Below are positions 1 to 18,708 of a stretch of 21,140 nt of DNA, piece by piece (positions within the stretch are counted from its first letter, which is position 1; each line of letters starts with the position of its first letter). The stretch comes from Saprospiraceae bacterium. GTDB taxonomy: Bacteria; Bacteroidota; Bacteroidia; Chitinophagales; Saprospiraceae. The notes beneath the pieces were generated by a model. That model did no database searches, had not been told where the DNA came from, and saw only the letters and a program-made list of their open reading frames with translations. Location of the stretch: assembly GCA_028285545.1 (NCBI GenBank), contig JANQPA010000119.1, positions 1 to 21,140 of the forward strand, in the 5' to 3' direction. The translations under genes were made by a program, and so were the position numbers.

Positions 1-64
1 TACCAGACTACCAGACTACCAGACTACCAGACTACCAGACTACCAGACTACCAGACTACCAGAC
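1..64. repeat. Perfect tandem array of the 8-bp unit TACCAGAC (8 copies), truncated by the window start
   Basis: Direct reading: taccagac repeated 8 times from position 1 to 64, then tactat. The same octamer family recurs at 17976-18046 and as a solo near 15785. Confidence 0.9.
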
Positions 65-198
65 TACTATAACCCCATACTTCACTCCCTTCATTTCCCT
101 TTTCACTACAATGAAATGTTTTTAGGAGGAAAGGTATTGCATCTTTGGGGTGTTAATAACCTCAATAACCTTATTTAAATCAAAATAAACCAAACCAA

Positions 199-684
199 AT
201 GAAAAATTCAATCTTAATTTTAGCAGCCATTTTTTCAATTAGCTTATTCACTTTCAGTTGTCAAAAGGAGGATGTTACTTCCAAAGAAGAAAATACAGAA
301 CACTTTTTCAAATGTAAAATGGATGGGCAGGATTATGTGATCAAAGGTTCCGTACTGGCCTATGGTGTAAAATGGGACACTGATTATGCCGTTTATGGTG
401 TTTCAAATCTTAATGCCGATCAGGCTATGTATGTAAACATTAGCGATGACCTAGGTGTAGGCACCCATCAGTTGGATGATTTGGATACTTATGCTTTAGT
501 TTCATTAGCAGATGGTAGTGCCTGGAGTACCTACTGGGGCGACGGTTCAGGTACAGTCACCATTACGGAAAAAACAGTTACCGGTGTTCGAGGAACTTTC
601 TCTTTCACAGTTTATAATGCAGATGATATCAATGAAAAAATGGAGATTACTGAAGGATCTTTTAATGTAGCTTTTAGAGAATAA
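199..684 (+). CDS. hypothetical small lipoprotein (161 aa)
   Basis: N-terminal signal peptide with a lipobox-like Cys (LFTFSC-QKE). The mature part is beta-rich (Y/V/T/G-rich). Followed by a strong hairpin plus T-tract. Confidence 0.7.
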   Translation: MKNSILILAAIFSISLFTFSCQKEDVTSKEENTEHFFKCKMDGQDYVIKGSVLAYGVKWDTDYAVYGVSNLNADQAMYVNISDDLGVGTHQLDDLDTYALVSLADGSAWSTYWGDGSGTVTITEKTVTGVRGTFSFTVYNADDINEKMEITEGSFNVAFRE

Positions 685-3765: not shown

Positions 3766-3786
3766 TTGTTTTATATAACTGTATTA

Positions 3787-3874
3787 TACCCTTTAGGTGT
3801 CTGGAATTCAACATTTATGTTGAAAATTGTATACCAACCGGCTAAAGCCTGTTGTCCAGACACCCTAAAGGGTA
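3787..3874. repeat. Long imperfect inverted repeat (about 19-bp arms, about 50-nt loop with nested small palindromes) between convergent genes. Likely a bidirectional terminator or REP-like element.
   Basis: taccctttaggtgtctgga (3787-3805) pairs with tccagacaccctaaagggta (3855-3874), with a single-base bulge. The loop contains caacatttatgttg and ggctaaagcc palindromes. Confidence 0.6.
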
Positions 3875-3901
3875 TAGTACAATTACAATTAATATAGGGG
3901 A

Positions 3902-5599
3902 TTACATTTTTTTATACACCGCATGAGGATCGCTATTCACCAAAAAACCATCCTGCTTGAACTGAAGGAATGCAGTAGTCTCATATTTTATATTCCAGGT
4001 CATAAACTCATTTTCTCCTATGGGAATGAGAAAGGCTTCAAACCTTTCGGGAATATAATAGGGGTGGAGAGCTATTCGCCCATTGGGTATGCGGGTAGCT
4101 CTAAGGAGGAAGGGGCCATTCTCAAATTTTAATTCCATGAAAATTTGTATTTCCAATTCGCCTTGATAAAAATAGGGGCGTTTGTGTAAGATTTTCATGC
4201 TCTTATATTTTCCATATCCCGCTTTTAATTGATTCCAAACGCTGCTATACTGAACTTTGAATCGATCGAATAAACCTTCAAAAAATACATCCTTTAGAGG
4301 TTCAAAATCATTCCTGTTGATATGATCTATAGTAAATTCAAGTTGATCATCCTTTTCTGAAGCCCATTTTTCTTCATCAGGGAATAAAAGATTTCTGATT
4401 AGCTTGGTATCGGTTGTTCTTAGTTTAATTTGGTTAGAAATTTTGCCTGCTGAAATGTTAGCACTTGAATTACCAATTTGATATTTTCCGAAGTGTTTTT
4501 CTAAATTCACTGCACTAGCCTTATATGGAGAACTAGGAGGAAACTTGGTATAACCACCAAAAACAATAGACTCAACTTCTTGCATAATGTTCTCATGCCG
4601 AAGAGTCTCATTCATATTGGTATTGCCAAGGAAAATAACTACTAAATCTTCTTCTACAAAATGATAGAAACCAGTGACCATACCCAACCAACTATCATAA
4701 CCACCGTGATAAATCAATTGAGTACCACGAATGGTTTTTCGGACATTCCAACCGTAGGCATAATTATCCTTCTCAACTTTTAATAATTTTTGCTTTGATT
4801 TTTCAGTCAATAATTTATTAGAATGAAAAATTAGCTGATACCATTTATACATATCTTCGACGGTGGACAGGGTTACTGTAAATGGCCAGCTGAGTGGATT
4901 AGAAGACAATTTTAAGTCTGTATTAGAAACAGGCCAGTCCATGTATTGAGCTACCTGACCTTTTTTCCATTTTATGGATTTATTACCGGTATACCTCATC
5001 CCATTGGGTTTGAAGATATCTTCCACCAAAAACTGGATTCTAGGCTTTCCGGTTTTCAACTCAATAATTTTTGCTAAAATATCATAGCCAAAATTGGAAT
5101 AGCTAAAGGTCGTTCCAGGCTTATATTCCAGATCCTTTTCCAGCACTTTTGCAATAAATTGAGAGAAACTCAAATCTCTGTATTCTTTGTTATCCCAGTA
5201 AGCATTTCTCAATCCAGAAGTATGAGTTAATAATTGATGAATAGTAATTTCGGATTTATCTGTTGGGACATTAGACAAATGATCATCAATTTTATCATTA
5301 GTATTTAGAAGTCCCCTTTGTTCTAAAGTTAATATAGCCACAGCTGTGAACTGCTTCATAATGGATGCAATAGAATAGGCAGGCATTGAATTTAGAGTAG
5401 CTTCTTCGTTTCCGTAATTATTTTTAAAAATAATACCCTCCTTATTCCCAATGAGTAAACTTCCTGATAGGCCAAAAGCTTCCAGCTTTTTGAAATAGGT
5501 ATCAATAGCTTTGGCTGAAGAGGGAAGCGCATCTTGAGCAAAGGTATTTGTATGTACCAGGCATAGGGTGACCACTAAAGTAGTGACAAACTGCTTCAT
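3902..5599 (-). CDS. beta-lactamase-family serine hydrolase (PBP4/AmpC-like fold) with a ~200-aa C-terminal extension (565 aa)
   Basis: Signal peptide. S-x-x-K motif (ASIMKQF), Y-x-N motif (YSNFGY) and HGG (KTG-equivalent, HGGYDSW), correctly ordered. An extra C-terminal domain of unknown function follows. Confidence 0.85.
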   Translation of the reverse strand: MKQFVTTLVVTLCLVHTNTFAQDALPSSAKAIDTYFKKLEAFGLSGSLLIGNKEGIIFKNNYGNEEATLNSMPAYSIASIMKQFTAVAILTLEQRGLLNTNDKIDDHLSNVPTDKSEITIHQLLTHTSGLRNAYWDNKEYRDLSFSQFIAKVLEKDLEYKPGTTFSYSNFGYDILAKIIELKTGKPRIQFLVEDIFKPNGMRYTGNKSIKWKKGQVAQYMDWPVSNTDLKLSSNPLSWPFTVTLSTVEDMYKWYQLIFHSNKLLTEKSKQKLLKVEKDNYAYGWNVRKTIRGTQLIYHGGYDSWLGMVTGFYHFVEEDLVVIFLGNTNMNETLRHENIMQEVESIVFGGYTKFPPSSPYKASAVNLEKHFGKYQIGNSSANISAGKISNQIKLRTTDTKLIRNLLFPDEEKWASEKDDQLEFTIDHINRNDFEPLKDVFFEGLFDRFKVQYSSVWNQLKAGYGKYKSMKILHKRPYFYQGELEIQIFMELKFENGPFLLRATRIPNGRIALHPYYIPERFEAFLIPIGENEFMTWNIKYETTAFLQFKQDGFLVNSDPHAVYKKM

Positions 5600-5629: not shown

Positions 5630-5675
<46 letters not shown>

Positions 5676-5694
5676 ATATTACATATAACTCCCA

Positions 5695-6645
5695 TCATTT
5701 CGATTCATCAATCAATATACTTTCACTTAAGTCAATTGCTTGTCCATTATAATCAGTAGTCCAACCAAACTTGACCTTAAAAGAACCTTCTCTGGCAACG
5801 TTGACAATAATATTACTGGCGATATCAGTTCCTGGAATGCTCATCGTAATTTTAAAATCCCGGACCAGGAACAATTCTTTTGTTTTTCTTTTCTTTTGAT
5901 GGTGGACCCTGTACCAATAATCGATCCCAGCTTTTTTGGCTAATTCATAGACTCTTCTGAAATCCGATTCCGTAGAATATTCATTCAGGGTGAACACTTT
6001 TTCTGTGCTGTCAACTTTTGATTGATCTGAATCAGAATTTAATATTAAATCCCTCTCTTCAGGATTAGACTTTTGAGTTGCAGAGATTTTCTCCTCTACT
6101 TTTTGGCTGTTTTCTATTTCGAAAAGATCTGCAGTTTCGGTAAAAAAAGACTGTGGAAGGTCCCTAAAAGTAATTTTTGTTCCCGAGTTCATATTGTTAG
6201 TTAGGGTATCGGTATCAAGAGAGATAAGGAAGGTATCAATTTGCTTTCTTTTGTCATCATTAGTATTTCTAGGCTTTTCTTTAGGTCCATCTTTTACTTG
6301 ATCAGCTACTTTTCTGTCTTCTAATTCTATTTTTGGCTCATTTCCCTGAGCAAGGATTATTTTGGTATTATCGGAGTATACGTCGGTTATGGTTTCTTTA
6401 TTGAGGTTCTGATTATTTGTATTATAGCTCAGAAATACGGTGGTACCAATTAAAACTGCGGTGCTTGTAATAAAAAGGCTGGTTTTATTAATTATATTTT
6501 TAAAAATTCCGTTGCTCCATTTAGTTATTCCTCCTCCGGATATGCTTGTAGAAAATCTTTTGCTTACCTCATCGAAAGAAAGCTTGGGCTCCTGCGATTT
6601 AGCAGACTGAAATAATTCATCTAGTGGGCGCTCTCTTTTATTCAT
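5695..6645 (-). CDS. putative anti-sigma factor (single-pass membrane protein, 316 aa)
   Basis: The ATGA start/stop overlap with the upstream ECF sigma gene indicates translational coupling. A short cytoplasmic N-terminus is followed by one TM helix (SLFITSTAVLIGTTVFLSY) and an extracytoplasmic domain. Confidence 0.7.
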   Translation of the reverse strand: MNKRERPLDELFQSAKSQEPKLSFDEVSKRFSTSISGGGITKWSNGIFKNIINKTSLFITSTAVLIGTTVFLSYNTNNQNLNKETITDVYSDNTKIILAQGNEPKIELEDRKVADQVKDGPKEKPRNTNDDKRKQIDTFLISLDTDTLTNNMNSGTKITFRDLPQSFFTETADLFEIENSQKVEEKISATQKSNPEERDLILNSDSDQSKVDSTEKVFTLNEYSTESDFRRVYELAKKAGIDYWYRVHHQKKRKTKELFLVRDFKITMSIPGTDIASNIIVNVAREGSFKVKFGWTTDYNGQAIDLSESILIDESK

Positions 6646-7238: not shown

Positions 7239-9464
7239 TTAACCATGATCCTTTTCTATAAGACAGGTGTGGCAGCCATCATAACCTCGCTTAATAGCTC
7301 TATCTAATTGACTAAAGGCTATTTTATTTTTGGAAGACATTTTAGACACCCAGGGGCAATTCTTTCGATGCACCTCCTTGGTTCTTCTATTGGCTACAAA
7401 AGGAAAACGCCCTACATTCAGGCGTCTGGTGATTCTTCCCATTTCAAAACCACCTATTTTTTGAATAACTGCTAAATCAAAAGCTCCATCTGGAGTATCT
7501 TCCGGTAAAATGATTTTCAAGGAGGCCTGGATAATATCGCTACTTTTGAGTTCCATATTTTTTATTCTGGAAATACGGGAAGGTTTAACAGCCAAAAAAT
7601 GATATTTAGTAGAAGTTCTTTTCACTTGGATGTGTTCAAAAGTAGCTTGCTTGGTTAATCGATTTAATATTTTTAATTCTACCTCCGTACCTTCAGGAAG
7701 ATCTGTTAGATCTAAGCTTAGATCGCTCTTCAGACTTGTTCTTCGCCATCCTTGGATTAGGAAAGAGAAGTTTATGAGAGAGCCTGCAAAAATATCTTCC
7801 ACATCAAAATTTTTCCAGGTAACATTATTGCTTTCGCGGATGAGGTTTCGAAAATCATCAAGGCTTCGAATCCTGGAAAGATCAGGCTTGTCTTCTGTGG
7901 TCGTTCCAATTACTCCTACAAAACAATAGTGCCCAATAGCAGGGGCATTATTCCATCTCAAAGGGCCTACCACCCTAAATTCACCAGGTAATATATCATT
8001 GGCGGAAAGGGTACCTATTAAATTCCAGGAGTTAGGAGTGGGTAGTGTAGAGGGCATGGTCCAGTAGATGTCAATTTCTGCATCATCCTTTTGATAGCCT
8101 CGGTTTTGAAGCCGAGTGTAGATAAAATTACCTTGGCCTTCTTCCAGGGATTCAAAATGATGATCCTCAAATCGAGTAATCATATTGCCTAAAGCCTCTT
8201 GTGGGTTTACCAATTCTTGTCGAAAATGATTAATGTCCGGGCTCCTGGATAGACCACCATCTGCTAAAGGTTCCTCCCCTGTATCCTTTAAATTATCTCG
8301 AATGAATATATCGGAGGGGAGTTGTACGATCTCTATACAAAATTGGATTAAAGCAGCTGAGATCTCATCAATTACTGCTTCCCTTTCAGGCGAGGCGGGA
8401 GCAAACCCATCTCCAGTCTCAAGGGTGAATCCATGAACTTTTCTTAAAAATGGATTGACATAGCATCGGCTGTTGACATAATCCTGAGAGGTGCCTGTAG
8501 TAGGGGCAAGATCTACCGCCCTTTGAACAATATAACTTTTTCCTCTTACTTTGAGAATAGCCATTCGCATACTAATGCCCAGATTGACTCTCAGGAGGGT
8601 ATCTGCAGGATTAACATACTCTTTGTAACTGTCTCCTTCAGCCCCCATCTGTCCATGAAATTCAGTATTGCGAAAGTTCATATCTGGATTGGTGGTTTGA
8701 ACCTCATCAATTCCCCAATCATATAGAATTAATTGGCCGGAGCTATGAATATCAATAAAGAAGCTGATATTGGGATTGTCATCAAGAATCTGAACTACAT
8801 TTTTCGTTTCAGGTTCCGATGCGGCGCTGGGACCTATGTATCTACTGTTATCTGTTTGTTCACTACTATTTCTTCGAGCTGTTGGAGATAAATAATTATT
8901 AAAATCCCATAAAAAATCAAAATTTCTATTGATGTCGACTCCAAAGGTTCCATCACCATTATTCCGTCTATTTTTTCTCCATTTTGGACGCTCCTCTTCC
9001 GTTGCGGAAAAATGCCTGCCGTCAGGATTGGCCAGTGGGAATACAAAAATGTCCAATTGAGATACGATGGTTTGGATTTGTTCTGCTGTAAATTCATTTT
9101 CGTTAATGGTGATGCCTTCATTATTTTGATATGCATTGACCAAAATATTCATAAAATGAATGAGCGCATCAGGAGGCATCATTTCATTGCCGTGTATACC
9201 GCCTACAAAATAAACACCGACTCTTCCAGGGCCTGATCCATCTGCAATTTTTACGGCCTGGCAACGTCGTCCTTCATGGGTTCGGTGTGGTAAAAAGATG
9301 GGACTAGCCAGATGTGAAAACCTTTGGGTAACACGATCCATTTCTCTTTTAAAGTCGCTGACGCTTAAGTACATAGGTTTGGGATTTTTAACTTGTTTTA
9401 ACCGACTGAAGTCGGTTTTCCAGACATCCTGAAGGATATAGTACAGTATTAAGGGATTTCTCAA
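7239..9464 (-). CDS. M14-family zinc carboxypeptidase with a large C-terminal region ending in an Ada-like Zn-ribbon tail (741 aa). No signal peptide is evident.
   Basis: Zn-binding HxxE (GGIHGNEMM), second His ligand (FIDIHSSGQ) and catalytic Glu (HGFTLETG), in M14 order. The last ~50 aa (VHRKNCPW...NKIAFSQLDRAIKRGYDGCHTC) match the spacing of the Ada N-terminal zinc-binding motif. Confidence 0.8.
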   Translation of the reverse strand: MRNPLILYYILQDVWKTDFSRLKQVKNPKPMYLSVSDFKREMDRVTQRFSHLASPIFLPHRTHEGRRCQAVKIADGSGPGRVGVYFVGGIHGNEMMPPDALIHFMNILVNAYQNNEGITINENEFTAEQIQTIVSQLDIFVFPLANPDGRHFSATEEERPKWRKNRRNNGDGTFGVDINRNFDFLWDFNNYLSPTARRNSSEQTDNSRYIGPSAASEPETKNVVQILDDNPNISFFIDIHSSGQLILYDWGIDEVQTTNPDMNFRNTEFHGQMGAEGDSYKEYVNPADTLLRVNLGISMRMAILKVRGKSYIVQRAVDLAPTTGTSQDYVNSRCYVNPFLRKVHGFTLETGDGFAPASPEREAVIDEISAALIQFCIEIVQLPSDIFIRDNLKDTGEEPLADGGLSRSPDINHFRQELVNPQEALGNMITRFEDHHFESLEEGQGNFIYTRLQNRGYQKDDAEIDIYWTMPSTLPTPNSWNLIGTLSANDILPGEFRVVGPLRWNNAPAIGHYCFVGVIGTTTEDKPDLSRIRSLDDFRNLIRESNNVTWKNFDVEDIFAGSLINFSFLIQGWRRTSLKSDLSLDLTDLPEGTEVELKILNRLTKQATFEHIQVKRTSTKYHFLAVKPSRISRIKNMELKSSDIIQASLKIILPEDTPDGAFDLAVIQKIGGFEMGRITRRLNVGRFPFVANRRTKEVHRKNCPWVSKMSSKNKIAFSQLDRAIKRGYDGCHTCLIEKDHG

Positions 9465-13700: not shown

Positions 13701-15695
13701 AGTAAATAGTACAGAGATATTATCAATGATGCGGGTACTTTGGGTGGCATCTTCGATTTTTAGATTACTGACAATCTCAATTAATAATTCCAGTTCAGTA
13801 CCAATTTGATTGGCACACTCTTCTAATTCGTTGGCTTTTTTGGCCGTATTTAGATCTTTGATTTCAGCCTCTCGGGCCTCAATTTTTTTATCATAGGGTA
13901 ATAATGCTTCATCTTGTAATAAAAATGAAATACATCCCTCGGATAATTGCTGACTATTGGTATCAATCTCCTCCTCCAGATGAGTGATGGTTTCGGTATT
14001 GGCATAGGGAAGATCCTTCAGACTAATTACCTCTCCACGTAATTGCCGCAGCTCAGCCAGAATTGTAACAAATTGGTCGACAGAGTCAAAAGATTGTCTG
14101 CGTATTTGATCAAATAAGTTTTGGGCATGGATTTGAACCTGGTTAATTTCCTCCTGGGTTTGTTTCTGACTTCTGACTTTCTTTTCATAAGCATCAATAG
14201 CGGCATTAGCTGTTTCTCGGATATCCGCCAGCGGCTCATTTAGCTGAAAAGTAGAAGCATCATTTAACCAATAGTAGGAATCGATGACATCGGTACATTT
14301 TTTTACCAGGTCATCATATAAATCAGCATAATTATCTTCTTTGCTGCTTAGTACCAGAATTTCCGTACATTCTGCCATGGCCCGAACAATGTCCTTATTG
14401 CCAATTTTGTACAGGTAAGAGTTGGTATGCTCGGACGGAACTTCTTCGCCGGCTACAAAAGGAGTTTGCCAGATTTGAATGACATGATGCTTGATGGGAT
14501 CTTCCTCAGATCGAAAATAACACAATTCTCCACCGGGAAATAGGGTGAAACCATTGCAAAGGATAGGGGTTTCGACCTTTTGTTCAATTACATTATAGTG
14601 CAATAAAACATAAATACCCTTCTTTTTATCGTAAAAAACATAGAGATAATCTTCACCATTGGGCGACACGATGCGCTTTTTAAAAAGCTTATTGCGCATA
14701 TCAGGATCGAAGATCTTGTACTCCCCGGTTTTTAGATAATAGCCATTGGCAAAAATTAAACCATGCTCATCCGGGAGCAGAACACCCGAATCTTCCAGGG
14801 AGTCAATGCGCTGCACTTCCTGCATTTTTTCATTAAAAACAAAATATCGATATTCCTCCTGGTAGGGACGAATTTTTAGGGCAATCAAATTACCCAGGTT
14901 CGCATATAAATACTCTGCATCATCAAGGGTCTGGTCCTTATATTCCACATCCTCACTATAAATACCTCGGCCATCCTCTGTATTATCTTCTACCTTAATG
15001 GTTAAATCGCCACCTACTGTTTCTACAAAAACACGATCAAGAACAGACACATGAGGATGATCTCCTTTTTTGTGATCATCACGTCCTAGTCTTTTCCATT
15101 TGAATTCATGTTGCTGAGGAAAACGAACCTCATGATCGGATCGATTATCAATATATTGAATGCCTTCATCGGTGATCAACCATTTGAAGGTTTTAAAATC
15201 ATCTCCTTTTTCCGTTAAATGGAATACCATATATAGGTAAGAACCTCTTTGAGAAAAACGAGCGAAGTAGGCATCCTTATAGTACCGATAAAGATTGGTG
15301 AAGTCCAGTTGAAATTTTTCATCGTCAAGAATGGACAAATCTTTTTCTACAAAACGCTGCTCTTTAAACTCATAAATGCTGAATACATCCTTGAGTTGAA
15401 TTCCTGAGCGAAGTCCCACATGCACATTATAGCCAAAGACACAGTTATTGCCAATGGCTACAATATCCCTGGCAATACAATAATTGCTAGTGTTGACACG
15501 GTCAGTAGCAATCAATTGTGTTTCTATGGCACCAAAAACTTCCTTTCTTGCACGATTCAATTCCTGCATCCGTTTCCTCAATTCAGTGGCTTGCGCATCG
15601 AGGCGGTTGCGAATTATTTCATAGGTGCCACTTTCTAGTTGTGGGTTGTGTTGTGTAGTATCTTGGATATTGCTTGACATTTGAAATGTATTCAA
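10800..15695 (-). CDS. giant multidomain protein (1631 aa): beta-rich N-terminal domain, then a long coiled coil, then an alpha-helical region, then a C-terminal MoxR/dynein-type (AAA_5-like) AAA+ ATPase
   Basis: The uninterrupted 4.9-kb ORF begins at a TTG at 15695; the first ATG is at 15680 (MSSNIQ...). Walker A LISPPGYGKTT is encoded at 11856-11870 and Walker B MLYLDDIQH follows. The VVMAGNPYTESGAKFQIPDMLANRADIY segment gives the sensor and arginine pattern of MoxR/McrB/dynein-like AAA+ domains. Heptad-rich E/K/L/Q segments are at about 13000-14100. Confidence 0.85.
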   Translation of the reverse strand: MNTFQMSSNIQDTTQHNPQLESGTYEIIRNRLDAQATELRKRMQELNRARKEVFGAIETQLIATDRVNTSNYCIARDIVAIGNNCVFGYNVHVGLRSGIQLKDVFSIYEFKEQRFVEKDLSILDDEKFQLDFTNLYRYYKDAYFARFSQRGSYLYMVFHLTEKGDDFKTFKWLITDEGIQYIDNRSDHEVRFPQQHEFKWKRLGRDDHKKGDHPHVSVLDRVFVETVGGDLTIKVEDNTEDGRGIYSEDVEYKDQTLDDAEYLYANLGNLIALKIRPYQEEYRYFVFNEKMQEVQRIDSLEDSGVLLPDEHGLIFANGYYLKTGEYKIFDPDMRNKLFKKRIVSPNGEDYLYVFYDKKKGIYVLLHYNVIEQKVETPILCNGFTLFPGGELCYFRSEEDPIKHHVIQIWQTPFVAGEEVPSEHTNSYLYKIGNKDIVRAMAECTEILVLSSKEDNYADLYDDLVKKCTDVIDSYYWLNDASTFQLNEPLADIRETANAAIDAYEKKVRSQKQTQEEINQVQIHAQNLFDQIRRQSFDSVDQFVTILAELRQLRGEVISLKDLPYANTETITHLEEEIDTNSQQLSEGCISFLLQDEALLPYDKKIEAREAEIKDLNTAKKANELEECANQIGTELELLIEIVSNLKIEDATQSTRIIDNISVLFTRLNQVKAAIKRKKDHLAKTEAGAEFNAQMRLLDQSIINFLEVSDNPQKCDEYLSKLMVQLEELESRFVEIPEFTTSLAEKREEVYSAFETRRNALVEARNNRTAALQNAANRILEGIQKRTAAFKEINEINSFFASDLMVDKVRDIIRDLNEQDDSNKAGGIQTRLKSLREEALRQLRDRQDLYVGGANVMKLGKHQFSVNTQPLELTIVRDNGGMSFHLTGTEFYEPIQDPRFLDTKEVWNQSLVSENNQVYRSEYLAFQIYQTASQKVLKKNKKDLLPLVQEFAANRYEEGYTKGIHDEDAAKILAQLVDLSDRLDLLYFTPRVRACGKLFWLFFAKKERKILLNNQLKSAGVILQVFPDTHEFDYLIEELSQEIGLFLGESRLFPEALASRVANYLFKELARSEHFVASKEAVDLSKDFKAFIKKKKAVTIFNNSVKELDGQSRPQFNLIRRWLQAYIEQIEEANLWAYLDEASMLIMAGDLEKSKIIDTPTQAQLMGFHGDHAVLENGTYAFDFHQFMDKLEHFTTEACPQFEAYSSLKKQLNEEYRQKLQLNEFQPRVLSSFVRNQLIDKVYLPIFGNNFAKQLGTVGEDTRTDRMGLLLLISPPGYGKTTLMEYIANRLGLIFVKINGPAIGHEVTSLAPEDAPSMAARKELNKLNLSLEMGDNIMLYLDDIQHCNPEFLQKFISLCDAQRKIEGVYNGIGKTYDLRGKRFCVVMAGNPYTESGAKFQIPDMLANRADIYNLGDIIGETADAFKMSYIENSLTSNPSLNRLAGKNMKDVYTFIKIAETGSRDGAEFEGQYGAEDTNEYLAVLSKLLLVRDTILTVNQEYIRSAAMSDEYRTEPAFKLQGSYRDMNKLAEKIVPILNDQELQTLILDHYEGEAQTLTADAEANLLKLKEMLGWISEEEKSRWEEIKKTFNKNKLFKGVDANNPMGQVIAQLSAFTDGVEGIKEAIEKNQKK

Positions 15696-15735
15696 GTTTT
15701 CAAGTTAGCAAGTTTTCAAGTTAACTTGCTAACTT
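15691..15735. promoter_or_regulatory. TTCAAGTT x4 tandem octamers overlapping a perfect 13-bp-stem hairpin, in the 5' region of the giant ATPase gene
   Basis: Four octamer copies: ttcaagtt, ttcaagtt, agcaagtt, ttcaagtt. aagttagcaagtt (15702-15714) pairs with aacttgctaactt (15723-15735), loop ttcaagtt. A T-tract follows on the plus strand (ctaggcttttt). Confidence 0.6.
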
Positions 15736-15862
15736 CTAGGCTTTTTGGAAAGATCTGATCTTCCTAAATTGTTCATGGCAGCCCTAGACTACCACGAACA
15801 AAACAATATGTCTCTATTTATCTCATGGCGCGATAGCGACATATATCTCTATCTGTCTCTTT

Positions 15863-17975: not shown

Positions 17976-18046
17976 TGGTAGACTGGTAGGCTAGTGGTCT
18001 GGTAGTCTGGGAATATTCCCTAATACTAGACTACCAGACTACCAGC
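17976..18046. repeat. Inverted array of the TACCAGAC octamer family: about 4 reverse copies (tggtagac, tggtaggc, tagtggtc, tggtagtc), a spacer containing the 12-bp palindrome gggaatattccc, then about 2.5 forward copies (agactaccagactaccag). Sits in the NfeD-flotillin intergenic gap.
   Basis: Direct reading. ctggtagtctgg (17999-18010) is the exact reverse complement of ccagactaccag (18034-18045). Confidence 0.85.
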
Positions 18047-18054
18047 ACACCATA

Positions 18055-18708
18055 CTACTTTTTCTCAATTAAATAATATTTATCATCCTCTGTTTTGCCA
18101 ATGATGATGGCTTGTTCCCCAGATGATATGGGGTCTTTGTCGTTTTCAGTTTTTACATTTATTAAGTTAGGGGTGTCGTCAATCAGTACTTCAGCCTGTC
18201 CAAATTTGGTAGCACTGGCCGGTAATTTGAGCCTGCATTCCATTCCAACATAATCAATTGCCTCAGCAGTCGTATCTAATCGCTTAAAAACAGGAATTAA
18301 TGGAGTGCTCAATATTTTGGCAACTACTAAATTTACAAATAGAATAGGAATAAACATAGCTAAGGCAAAAAGAGCACTTCCTTGTCCAATGTAATAATTA
18401 CTCAGGATAGACAAAACCCAACCACTCATGGCCACAAAGGTGATGATAACCATAAAGGGCATTTTACCGAAATTAAAGAAGTGAAGTGTTCCAGCCAGCC
18501 AGCCAGTTGTGGTCCCAGCTTCCACATCTGCATCTACATCCACATCTGCGTCAAGATCAATATCGGCATCAATGTCAAAATCCAAATCGAAAGAACTCAA
18601 ATCAATCGCCCCCAGGATAACAGATAGCCAATAAAATATGACCAGCAGTAATAAAATAGTGTAAAATAAATTTACAGGTAAAAAAGCAACCTGGAGTAAT
18701 TCTTGCAT
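18055..18708 (-). CDS. NfeD/YqiJ-like inner-membrane protein (flotillin partner) with a C-terminal OB-fold and an unusual Asp-rich repeat (217 aa)
   Basis: Multiple TM helices. A C-terminal beta-barrel-like tail (GQAEVLIDD...AIIIGKTEDDKYYLIEK) is typical of NfeD short homologues. The DLDFDIDADIDLDADVDVDADVE acidic repeat sits after the first TM. The position immediately upstream of a flotillin gene mirrors yqiJ-yqiK. Confidence 0.75.
   Translation of the reverse strand: MQELLQVAFLPVNLFYTILLLLVIFYWLSVILGAIDLSSFDLDFDIDADIDLDADVDVDADVEAGTTTGWLAGTLHFFNFGKMPFMVIITFVAMSGWVLSILSNYYIGQGSALFALAMFIPILFVNLVVAKILSTPLIPVFKRLDTTAEAIDYVGMECRLKLPASATKFGQAEVLIDDTPNLINVKTENDKDPISSGEQAIIIGKTEDDKYYLIEKK

Follow-up and report, generated by a model that had tools for sequence, protein, structure and literature searches.

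An intergenic octamer repeat in a Saprospiraceae contig, its probable change of length in place, and a stem-loop of opposed arrays between NfeD-like and flotillin-like genes

A contig of a Saprospiraceae bacterium, JANQPA010000119.1, analysed here over its entire 21,140 nt as the window, opens with a perfect tandem array of the octamer TACCAGAC and carries, further on and within a cassette that includes a flotillin-like gene, two opposed arrays of the same unit, which reads TGGTAGTC on its G-rich strand. The question raised by this arrangement is whether the sites are the ends of a mobile segment, promoter switches, arrays of binding sites for some factor, or simple repeats. The answer that we consider probable is that the TACCAGAC sites are long simple-sequence repeats of the 7-8 nt kind that change their length in place, one of them having a stem-loop role in an operon.

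The octamer array upstream of the DUF6252 gene

The first array is cut by the contig end, so the 8.4 copies recognised by Tandem Repeats Finder (TRF) at 100% matches are a minimum length. An earlier note, made from the letters of the window, had described this perfect array, a site of opposed arrays able to fold into a hairpin and a solitary copy as a family of three sites. The first two were borne out, the arms of the hairpin with adjusted limits (Table 1), and all three sites are indeed intergenic. When the window was probed with a 12-mer of 1.5 units, allowing up to two mismatches, 13-15 matches were found against about 0.7 (0.74) expected, and none of 100 shuffles reached 13; apart from the solitary copy, the matches are confined to the two array sites. 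The solitary copy, which lies at 15784-15795 rather than at the 15785-15796 first given, has two mismatches, and about 0.7 such matches are expected in each of the 8 registers; it is at chance level and therefore is not counted in the octamer family. TRF reports four arrays of three different units in the window. A coding repeat, suggested by the YQTTRLPD frame that is open on the C-rich strand, was rejected for the window, its sites being intergenic, and may fit a few loci elsewhere, such as L059.

Comparison with relatives and other carriers is based on fetched loci, named L001-L137, in which gene calls are crude, being the longest non-overlapping open reading frames (ORFs). The array ends 132 nt before the ATG of a DUF6252 gene, whose sense strand is the C-rich strand of the array and whose product, read straight from the ORF, has a lipoprotein-like signal peptide. 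Orthologues with 65% identity are present on L080-L083, and the upstream regions of L080 and L083 can be aligned with positions 50-201 of the window. Both relatives have there a single proto-unit, CTACCAACATCC(GG)ACTACTGTAA, without an array; it can also be read as CTACCAACATCC(GG)ACTAC or, in the alignment, as CTACCAAC...GACTAC. The window has the array followed by TACTATAACC, and array 1-67 aligns as an insertion relative to both relatives, placed at the proto-unit. Nearer the ATG lies a block common to the window and its relatives, GCATCTTTG..GT.AAT.ACCTCAA, which is presumably regulatory, and the array sits upstream of it. Because the relatives carry a single proto-unit at the aligned position, the array is, as far as the alignment indicates, a lineage-specific expansion in place, seeded by native sequence, and not an inserted element. 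Exact-protein look-ups for the two genes adjoining the array returned no other contig, leaving the array unbridged. In the relatives the conserved block reads TTTGTGACGTAATTACC, which is CRP/CRE-like, and in L080 a gene for a cyclic nucleotide (cNMP)-binding regulator lies two genes away from it.

Variation in the length of the octamer array is seen at a metagenome locus with a methyltransferase gene on one side and a STAS gene on the other, where six contigs from different samples have flanks that are 99.4-100% identical over 1.4 to 7 kb. The array has 11, 12, 6 and 13 units in L104, L121, L123 and L132, respectively, and at least 13 in L090 and at least 15 in L131, both of which are cut by contig ends. 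Octamer copy number at this locus is hypervariable against a near-identical background, and the family adds a clean example of such behaviour. Because copy number varies, assemblies break off in such arrays: the contig of the window does so, and the contigs L030 and L050 stop 55 nt into an array. Strand slippage during replication or repair would give rise to such arrays and alter their length in place, and, as a unit of 8 nt disrupts the reading frame, only those between genes would last; upstream of the DUF6252 gene the proto-unit would have been expanded in this lineage into an array whose length or heterogeneity was sufficient to halt the assembly.

The same hypervariability, seen at a comparable site where the array lies 120 nt upstream of the STAS gene with its C-rich strand as the sense strand, would also suit a phase-variable promoter in which the copy number of array 1-67 tunes or switches the DUF6252 gene. 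The lipoprotein-like signal peptide of the product fits this, as does the break in the assembly, which a heterogeneous array would cause. The array nevertheless lies upstream of the conserved block, 132 nt away from the ATG, neither between promoter hexamers nor in an ORF, and the relatives do without it. Moreover, among the 72 genomic loci with the octamer, where 64 of the 72 arrays are outside ORF calls, neighbouring genes have the array on their 5' side in 44 cases and on their 3' side in 42; the 5' arrays split into 28 sense and 16 antisense, and relative to the neighbouring gene the C-rich strand is sense in 50 cases and antisense in 36. There is no 5'/3' bias and no strand bias. The earlier note had proposed enrichment in 5' regions as a check, with lack of positional bias as the refuting outcome; the enrichment is not found, which counts against a promoter-specific role. 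What stands of its slipped-strand variable element is the variability, with 6, 11, 12 and 13 copies at the other locus, while a promoter switch gains no support, and we regard it as quite unlikely.

The opposed arrays within the flotillin cassette

The second octamer site occupies the spacer between two genes of a four-gene cassette that encodes PLDc_N, YqiJ/DUF1449 NfeD-like, flotillin-like Band_7 and DUF3686+DUF7902+AAA proteins (Table 1); homologues of the 217-aa YqiJ-like protein are named DUF1449 or OB-fold protein and come mostly from Saprospiraceae. The left arm of the site contains 4.4 copies in the TGGTAGTC sense with 77% matches and the right arm 4.4 copies in the TACCAGAC sense with 79%, the outer end of the latter overlapping the TAG stop codon (18055-18057) of the YqiJ-like gene. 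For the gene-strand RNA, folding gives a single long, imperfect stem-loop at -47.4 kcal/mol (z = -7.09; 0 of 200 shuffles as stable), with the UAG stop codon at the very beginning of its stem. Another assembly of the locus, L073, is identical to the window, although it may share the sample. Site 17976-18058 does not have the form of an intrinsic terminator, since the terminator scan is silent and the gene strand reads UUCAACCCAAAAAAC after the stem, with no U-run; a T-run follows the stem solely on the antisense (+) strand. Consensus scans for terminators and promoters called neither octamer site, and an Rfam scan of the window gave 0 matches at the gathering threshold.

The same four-gene order is found in L074-76, L077 and L079 at 74-77% protein identity, and in L073. 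In L074, L077 and L079 the spacer between the YqiJ-like and flotillin-like genes is 56, 92 and 147 nt long, respectively, and the octamer is absent from it; each of these spacers folds as a stem-loop unrelated in sequence (z = -2.7, -2.1 and -2.8), which begins one or two bases past the stop codon and is followed by an A/C-rich leader, CAAACAACAGUC-AUG, common to the relatives. The position of a stem-loop between the two genes is conserved, the sequences being unrelated, and it is this position that the window fills with a hairpin built of arrays. The next spacer, between the flotillin-like and DUF3686 genes, is occupied in the window by a TTCAAGTT-type array with a 13-bp stem (z = -3.6), in L074 by a 25-bp perfect palindrome (z = -11.5) and in L077 by a different stem (z = -5.5). 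The TTG start assigned mechanically to the DUF3686 gene, at 15695, probably makes it five codons too long, and an ATG at about 15680 is the probable start, the gene call for this protein in L073 being 1,626 aa.

No U-run follows any stem of the cassette spacers on the gene strand, and for this reason a read-through stem-loop is more likely than a terminator between the YqiJ-like and flotillin-like genes. Since the relatives hold unrelated stem-loops at the same position, a role as an operon-internal RNA stem-loop is the most likely one for the opposed arrays. The structure, which starts at the stop codon that closes the YqiJ/NfeD-like gene and lies ahead of the flotillin gene, would protect or process the upstream segment of the transcript and in this way set the ratio of the two products, with sense transcription not terminated. 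In Clostridium cellulolyticum, operon-internal stem-loops set transcript ratios through selective RNA processing and stabilisation (PMC4423207).

The cassette also bears on the suggestion of the earlier note that the sites are footprints of a mobile or recombination boundary. By position the sites do bracket some 18 kb, and the two window sites have the unit in opposite orientation, as the ends of an 18-kb segment or elements resembling MITEs (miniature inverted-repeat transposable elements) or REPINs (see below) might; in addition, several hairpin copies in the metagenome-assembled genome (MAG) 'bacterium Yes70-08' begin with a similar GTGATTGGTAGTC end. The bracket has, however, no biological meaning, as site 17976-18058 divides a cassette of four genes whose synteny extends to three related lineages, and this synteny refutes the boundary. 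Array 1 aligns as an in-place expansion, array flanks are unrelated between loci, terminal inverted repeats and target duplications are missing from the sites, and the window contains no transposase gene. The far-side neighbours of the cassette do differ among relatives, and nothing else favours a discrete 18-kb unit. The boundary reading is thus extremely improbable; the octamer sites are simple repeats and not cassette limits, and annotation and island calling should ignore them.

Table 1. Repeats, spacers and genes of the window discussed in the text (positions in the window unless a locus is named)
Feature	Position	Strand	Remark
Direct tandem array (TACCAGAC)x8.4	1..67	+	TRF: period 8, 100% matches
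Conserved block GCATCTTTG..GT.AAT.ACCTCAA	139-170; L080 4950-4985; L083 200-235		upstream of DUF6252 gene
DUF6252 lipoprotein-like gene	199-684	+	
110-nt hairpin	3776-3885		between two convergent genes
Beta-lactamase-family gene	3902-5599	-	
(CTTTCTA)x6.1, perfect heptamer array	5633..5675	.	other unit of the class
316-aa ORF	5695-6645	-	
46-nt half copy of the 110-nt hairpin	9400-9445		downstream of lumazine-binding-like gene
DUF3686+DUF7902+AAA, ~1,626 aa	10800 to about 15680		cassette gene
TTCAAGTT-type array, period 8/16	15691..15723	.	stem-loop upstream of DUF3686 AAA gene
Solitary ctagactaccac / CTAGACTACCAC, 1.5 units, 2 mismatches	15784..15795	+	at chance level
Flotillin-like Band_7, 696 aa	15863-17953	-	cassette gene
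101-nt intercistronic spacer with stem-loop	17954..18054	-	between YqiJ/NfeD-like and flotillin-like Band_7 genes
Left arm, G-rich on + strand: TGGTAGAC TGGTAGGC TAGTGGTC TGGTAGTC TGG	17976..18010	.	TRF
Palindrome GGGAATATTCCC	18009..18020	.	forms apical stem and 4-nt loop
Right arm, C-rich on + strand: TACTAGAC TACCAGAC TACCAGCA CACCATAC TAC	18024..18058	.	TRF
YqiJ/DUF1449 NfeD-like, 217 aa	18055-18708	-	cassette gene
PLDc_N, 70 aa	18762-18974		cassette gene

The octamer among other short tandem arrays

Three perfect octamer units were searched for in a collection of species-representative genomes and in metagenome contigs, with viral contigs also scanned. They were found at 72 places in the genome collection and at 52 places in metagenome contigs, a frequency that, across 185,000 genomes, is uncalibrated against other octamers of equal composition. 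Among Saprospiraceae the carriers belong to Lewinella and Neolewinella, including the cultivable type strains Neolewinella persica DSM 23188 and N. agarilytica DSM 24740, and comprise one MAG with a guanine-plus-cytosine (GC) content of 36%. Many carriers are Chloroflexota (Anaerolineae, Ardenticatenaceae, Chloroflexus, Ca. Leptovillus), and further ones are Muribaculaceae, Crocinitomicaceae, WOR-3 and Nitrospirota. A Planctomycetota MAG carries octamer arrays on 7 contigs and an unclassified MAG on 10, the highest number of octamer-bearing contigs in one MAG being 12. The GC content of the loci ranges from 0.33 to 0.64; nothing besides the repeat is common to the window and the other loci, and the flanks of the arrays are unrelated from one locus to another. 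The viral collection (IMG/VR) yielded only two matches, on the near-identical contigs L084 and L085, where (GACTACCA)x3 has a promoter-like TTGACA...TATATG stretch on one side and a gene's ATG on the other. L133 has, at positions 1-2141, a repeat of about 700 nt in triplicate, every copy with a (TGGTAGTC)x3 array and near-identical flanks, that is, a long-period tandem repeat containing the octamer array.

A census of arrays was made with TRF (period 5-12, at least 3 copies) over 607 kb around the 72 genomic matches and over 223 kb of metagenome loci. The former contain 327 arrays, 130 of period 7 and 143 of period 8, the searched octamer accounting for 72 of the latter, while the remaining arrays are spread over more than 150 different units; array density reaches about one per kb in some genomes, and the metagenome loci repeat this pattern. 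Relatives of the window carry other units as well, such as TGGAACCC x7 and, in L077, a CGAAGGA/TCCTTCG pair. Of the genome-specific interspersed repeat postulated at first, there remains a dispersed family of arrays, which is one of more than 150 units and, occurring in several phyla, is not specific to this genome. Small perfect palindromes beginning AGAAACCAGGTTTCT..., ACCTTCCCGAAAGCT... and AGACCTGACAGGTYT... occur at several sites in L037, L060, L012, L072 ('bacterium Yes70-08'), L020 and L040, and the genomes with these dispersed palindromes are also rich in short tandem arrays.

The heptamers of cyanobacteria called short tandemly repeated repetitive (STRR) sequences were reportedly described by Mazel in 1990; bacterial arrays of 7-8 nt units have been known since that year and, to our knowledge, are still without an accepted mechanism or function. 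In the strict sense, STRR are the heptamers CCCCAGT, TTGGTCA or CAACAGT of heterocystous cyanobacteria, whereas TACCAGAC is an octamer, found here in a Saprospiraceae-like contig and otherwise hosted by Saprospiraceae, Chloroflexota and Planctomycetota. Mrazek, Guo and Shah (2007), in the summary given by PMC4679880, dealt with heptamer-biased long simple-sequence repeats (LSSR) with units of 5-11 nt, for which they proposed polymerase slippage with a footprint of about 7 nt. The octamer arrays resemble LSSR and STRR in being perfect 7-8 nt iterations beyond chance, mostly intergenic, dispersed, belonging to many unit families with many arrays, changing by whole units and inhabiting large non-pathogen genomes in which period 7-8 is dominant. 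The TACCAGAC arrays are a member of this known class of 7-8 nt tandem arrays, new in their unit and host range; a literature search on the octamer in all its registers found nothing relevant.

The closest parallels to the opposed arrays are the intergenic GGGAATC repeats of Xanthomonas, which occur singly or in always-convergent pairs and differ in length between species (Rehm et al. 2015; PMC4692102). The octamer shares with these and with the GGGGAYT repeats of Nostoc the intergenic location, the single or convergent pairs capable of forming a stem-loop, the place near the end of an upstream ORF, the differences in length between relatives and the transcribability of either strand. It differs in that TGGTAGTC lacks a run of GGG and hence cannot form a G-quadruplex; for the direct octamer array, folding predicts no structure on either strand. 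Comparable short-unit arrays are the (GATAGRA)n repeats of Chloroflexus (PMC6749651) and the TAACTGA repeats, found in marine Beggiatoaceae, Cyanobacteria and Bacteroidetes with no evident mechanism of transfer (MacGregor 2015; PMC4679880). Like the octamer, TAACTGA is one short unit in distant phyla, with long arrays in Bacteroidetes and other heptamers in the same spacers; in the Beggiatoaceae genome, however, it lies in forward orientation a few nucleotides from start codons, a bias which the TACCAGAC arrays do not have, and in the window 132 nt separate the array from the ATG.

The hairpin of the window shares with the repetitive extragenic palindromic (REP) sequences, the bacterial interspersed mosaic elements (BIME) and the REP doublets forming hairpins (REPIN), as with operon stem-loops, an intergenic position right after a stop codon, which is kept in relatives, and the lack of a U-tract. 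A REP or REPIN unit, 20-40 nt long, is imperfectly palindromic, has the conserved head GTAG and is scattered as near-identical copies, whereas the hairpin consists of two opposed tandem arrays without conserved flanks; the 8-nt unit is not palindromic, and the two sites of the window have only the unit in common. Contingency loci, lastly, share the hypervariable copy number against a near-identical background. They differ from the octamer arrays in having units of 1-5 nt, in lying in ORFs or promoter spacers and in belonging to host-adapted pathogens; the octamer hosts are free-living, its arrays have no bias towards surface genes or 5' positions, and the array in the window lies upstream of the conserved block.

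Pair orientation, unit core and other elements of the window

Two regularities go beyond what slippage alone would produce. The first is that inverted pairs of arrays have the G-rich array first. In about 20 genomic loci, 28 pairs of the type 5'-(TGGTAGTC)n-(GACTACCA)m-3' were counted against none of the opposite type, with four further G-rich-first pairs seen by eye, and in metagenome loci the count was 9 against 0, giving 37:0; the pair at 17976-18058, also convergent, follows the same order. Other units of 6-9 nt gave 32:1, the 5' arm having more G than C in 23 of 24 genomic and 9 of 9 metagenome pairs. The detector did recognise a synthetic pair of the opposite type, and perfect hairpins not made of arrays have no orientation bias at the same loci (22 vs 14). 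Either configuration reads the same on both strands, and therefore the direction of genes or of replication cannot favour one of them. As other units obey it and Xanthomonas pairs are described by Rehm et al. as always convergent, the rule appears general for this class of arrays. Inverted pairs are weakly enriched between convergent genes (7/30 vs 51/303 in the background). Avoidance of Rho as the cause of the rule was set aside, since direct arrays do not shun a C-rich sense strand.

Such an order is what would be left if G-rich repeats of 7-8 nt were added to the 3' ends of DNA breaks that were then rejoined, a process resulting in single arrays or in head-to-head pairs resembling fused telomeres. 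The exclusive orientation in both collections, the indifference of ordinary hairpins, the convergent Xanthomonas pairs, the unequal length of the arms with their non-matching variant units and the sharp peak of unit length at 7-8 nt would all be accounted for. Against it, no enzyme that would make such an addition is known, and none turned up; array 1 has the look of an expanded native proto-unit, and slippage suits changes in copy number by single units. Nor does DNA folding lend support to a simple snap-back variant, the minimum free energy being 0 for all strands and the ensemble energy of the G strands only about 1 kcal/mol lower. Addition at DNA ends is in our estimation very unlikely.

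The second regularity concerns the unit itself. Independent substitution events within arrays, counted by locus and base over positions 1-8 of the unit, number 33, 23, 22, 38, 17, 48, 58 and 63 in the genomic set (p ~1e-9), that is, 17-23 at A2, C3 and A5 against 48-63 at positions 6-8 (chi-square 55). The metagenome set gives 25, 22, 20, 17, 17, 23, 48 and 28 (p = 2e-4), with positions 7 and 8 the most variable, and replicates the pattern in part. The units, among them GACTACCA, GACTACCC, GACTACTC and GACTATCA, hold a GACTA core while the last two or three bases vary. A DNA- or RNA-binding factor that reads the GACTA (TAGTC) core every 8 nt, in regulation or in nucleoid organisation, would explain why the core is spared. 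It would also agree with the occurrence of the same octamer in several phyla and with separate octamer arrays in the same (Chloroflexota) genomes, of which about 6-7 of 44 are GACTAYNN against about 0.7 expected, and binding partners have been proposed in the literature for the heptamers of Nostoc and Beggiatoaceae. Yet no candidate protein was found, the more than 150 coexisting units would each need a factor of their own, and a strand-specific RNA role is made less likely by arrays that favour neither an orientation nor a position with respect to genes; the counts of variant units are moreover inflated by amplification of variants, although the trend is retained in per-locus counts. Taken together, an array of binding sites seems unlikely, if worth keeping in mind.

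Several points thus weigh against simple repeats that change their length by slippage as a complete account. Pure slippage explains neither the G-rich-first order of inverted pairs nor the retention of a GACTA core next to a tail of two or three variable bases, nor the presence of the same octamer in genomes of several phyla with 36-64% GC. The arms of the hairpin in the window carry non-matching variant units, which means that selection for pairing is weak or that the structure is young. Variability at the window loci is extrapolated from the sister locus, the sole second assembly, L073, being identical, and the RNA-level role of the stem-loop is one that we infer. As a long shot, the arrays might be what an active, polarised process common to distant phyla has left behind, either synthesis of the G strand with end joining or a factor reading GACTA; if true, this would explain pair orientation, the preference for 7-8 nt, the pattern of core and tail and the recurrence at 36-64% GC together. 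The orientation rule, seen in two collections and many units, and the 5-nt core with its variable tail have to be explained by any mechanism, and the cultivable Neolewinella carriers allow both regularities to be tested.

The other ORFs of the window are typical of Bacteroidota and include those for DUF4249, an extracytoplasmic function (ECF) sigma factor, an M14 peptidase and a beta-lactamase-family protein. A further array of the class, of the heptamer CTTTCTA, lies between two co-directional genes, bounded by the start of the beta-lactamase-family gene on one side and by the stop of the 316-aa ORF on the other. The 110-nt hairpin, with 22-nt terminal inverted repeats TAACTGTATTATACCCTTTAGG / CCTAAAGGGTATAGTACAATTA, resembles a MITE or a bidirectional terminator; there is no copy of it among the 137 fetched loci, and the half copy within the window is 83% identical to it.

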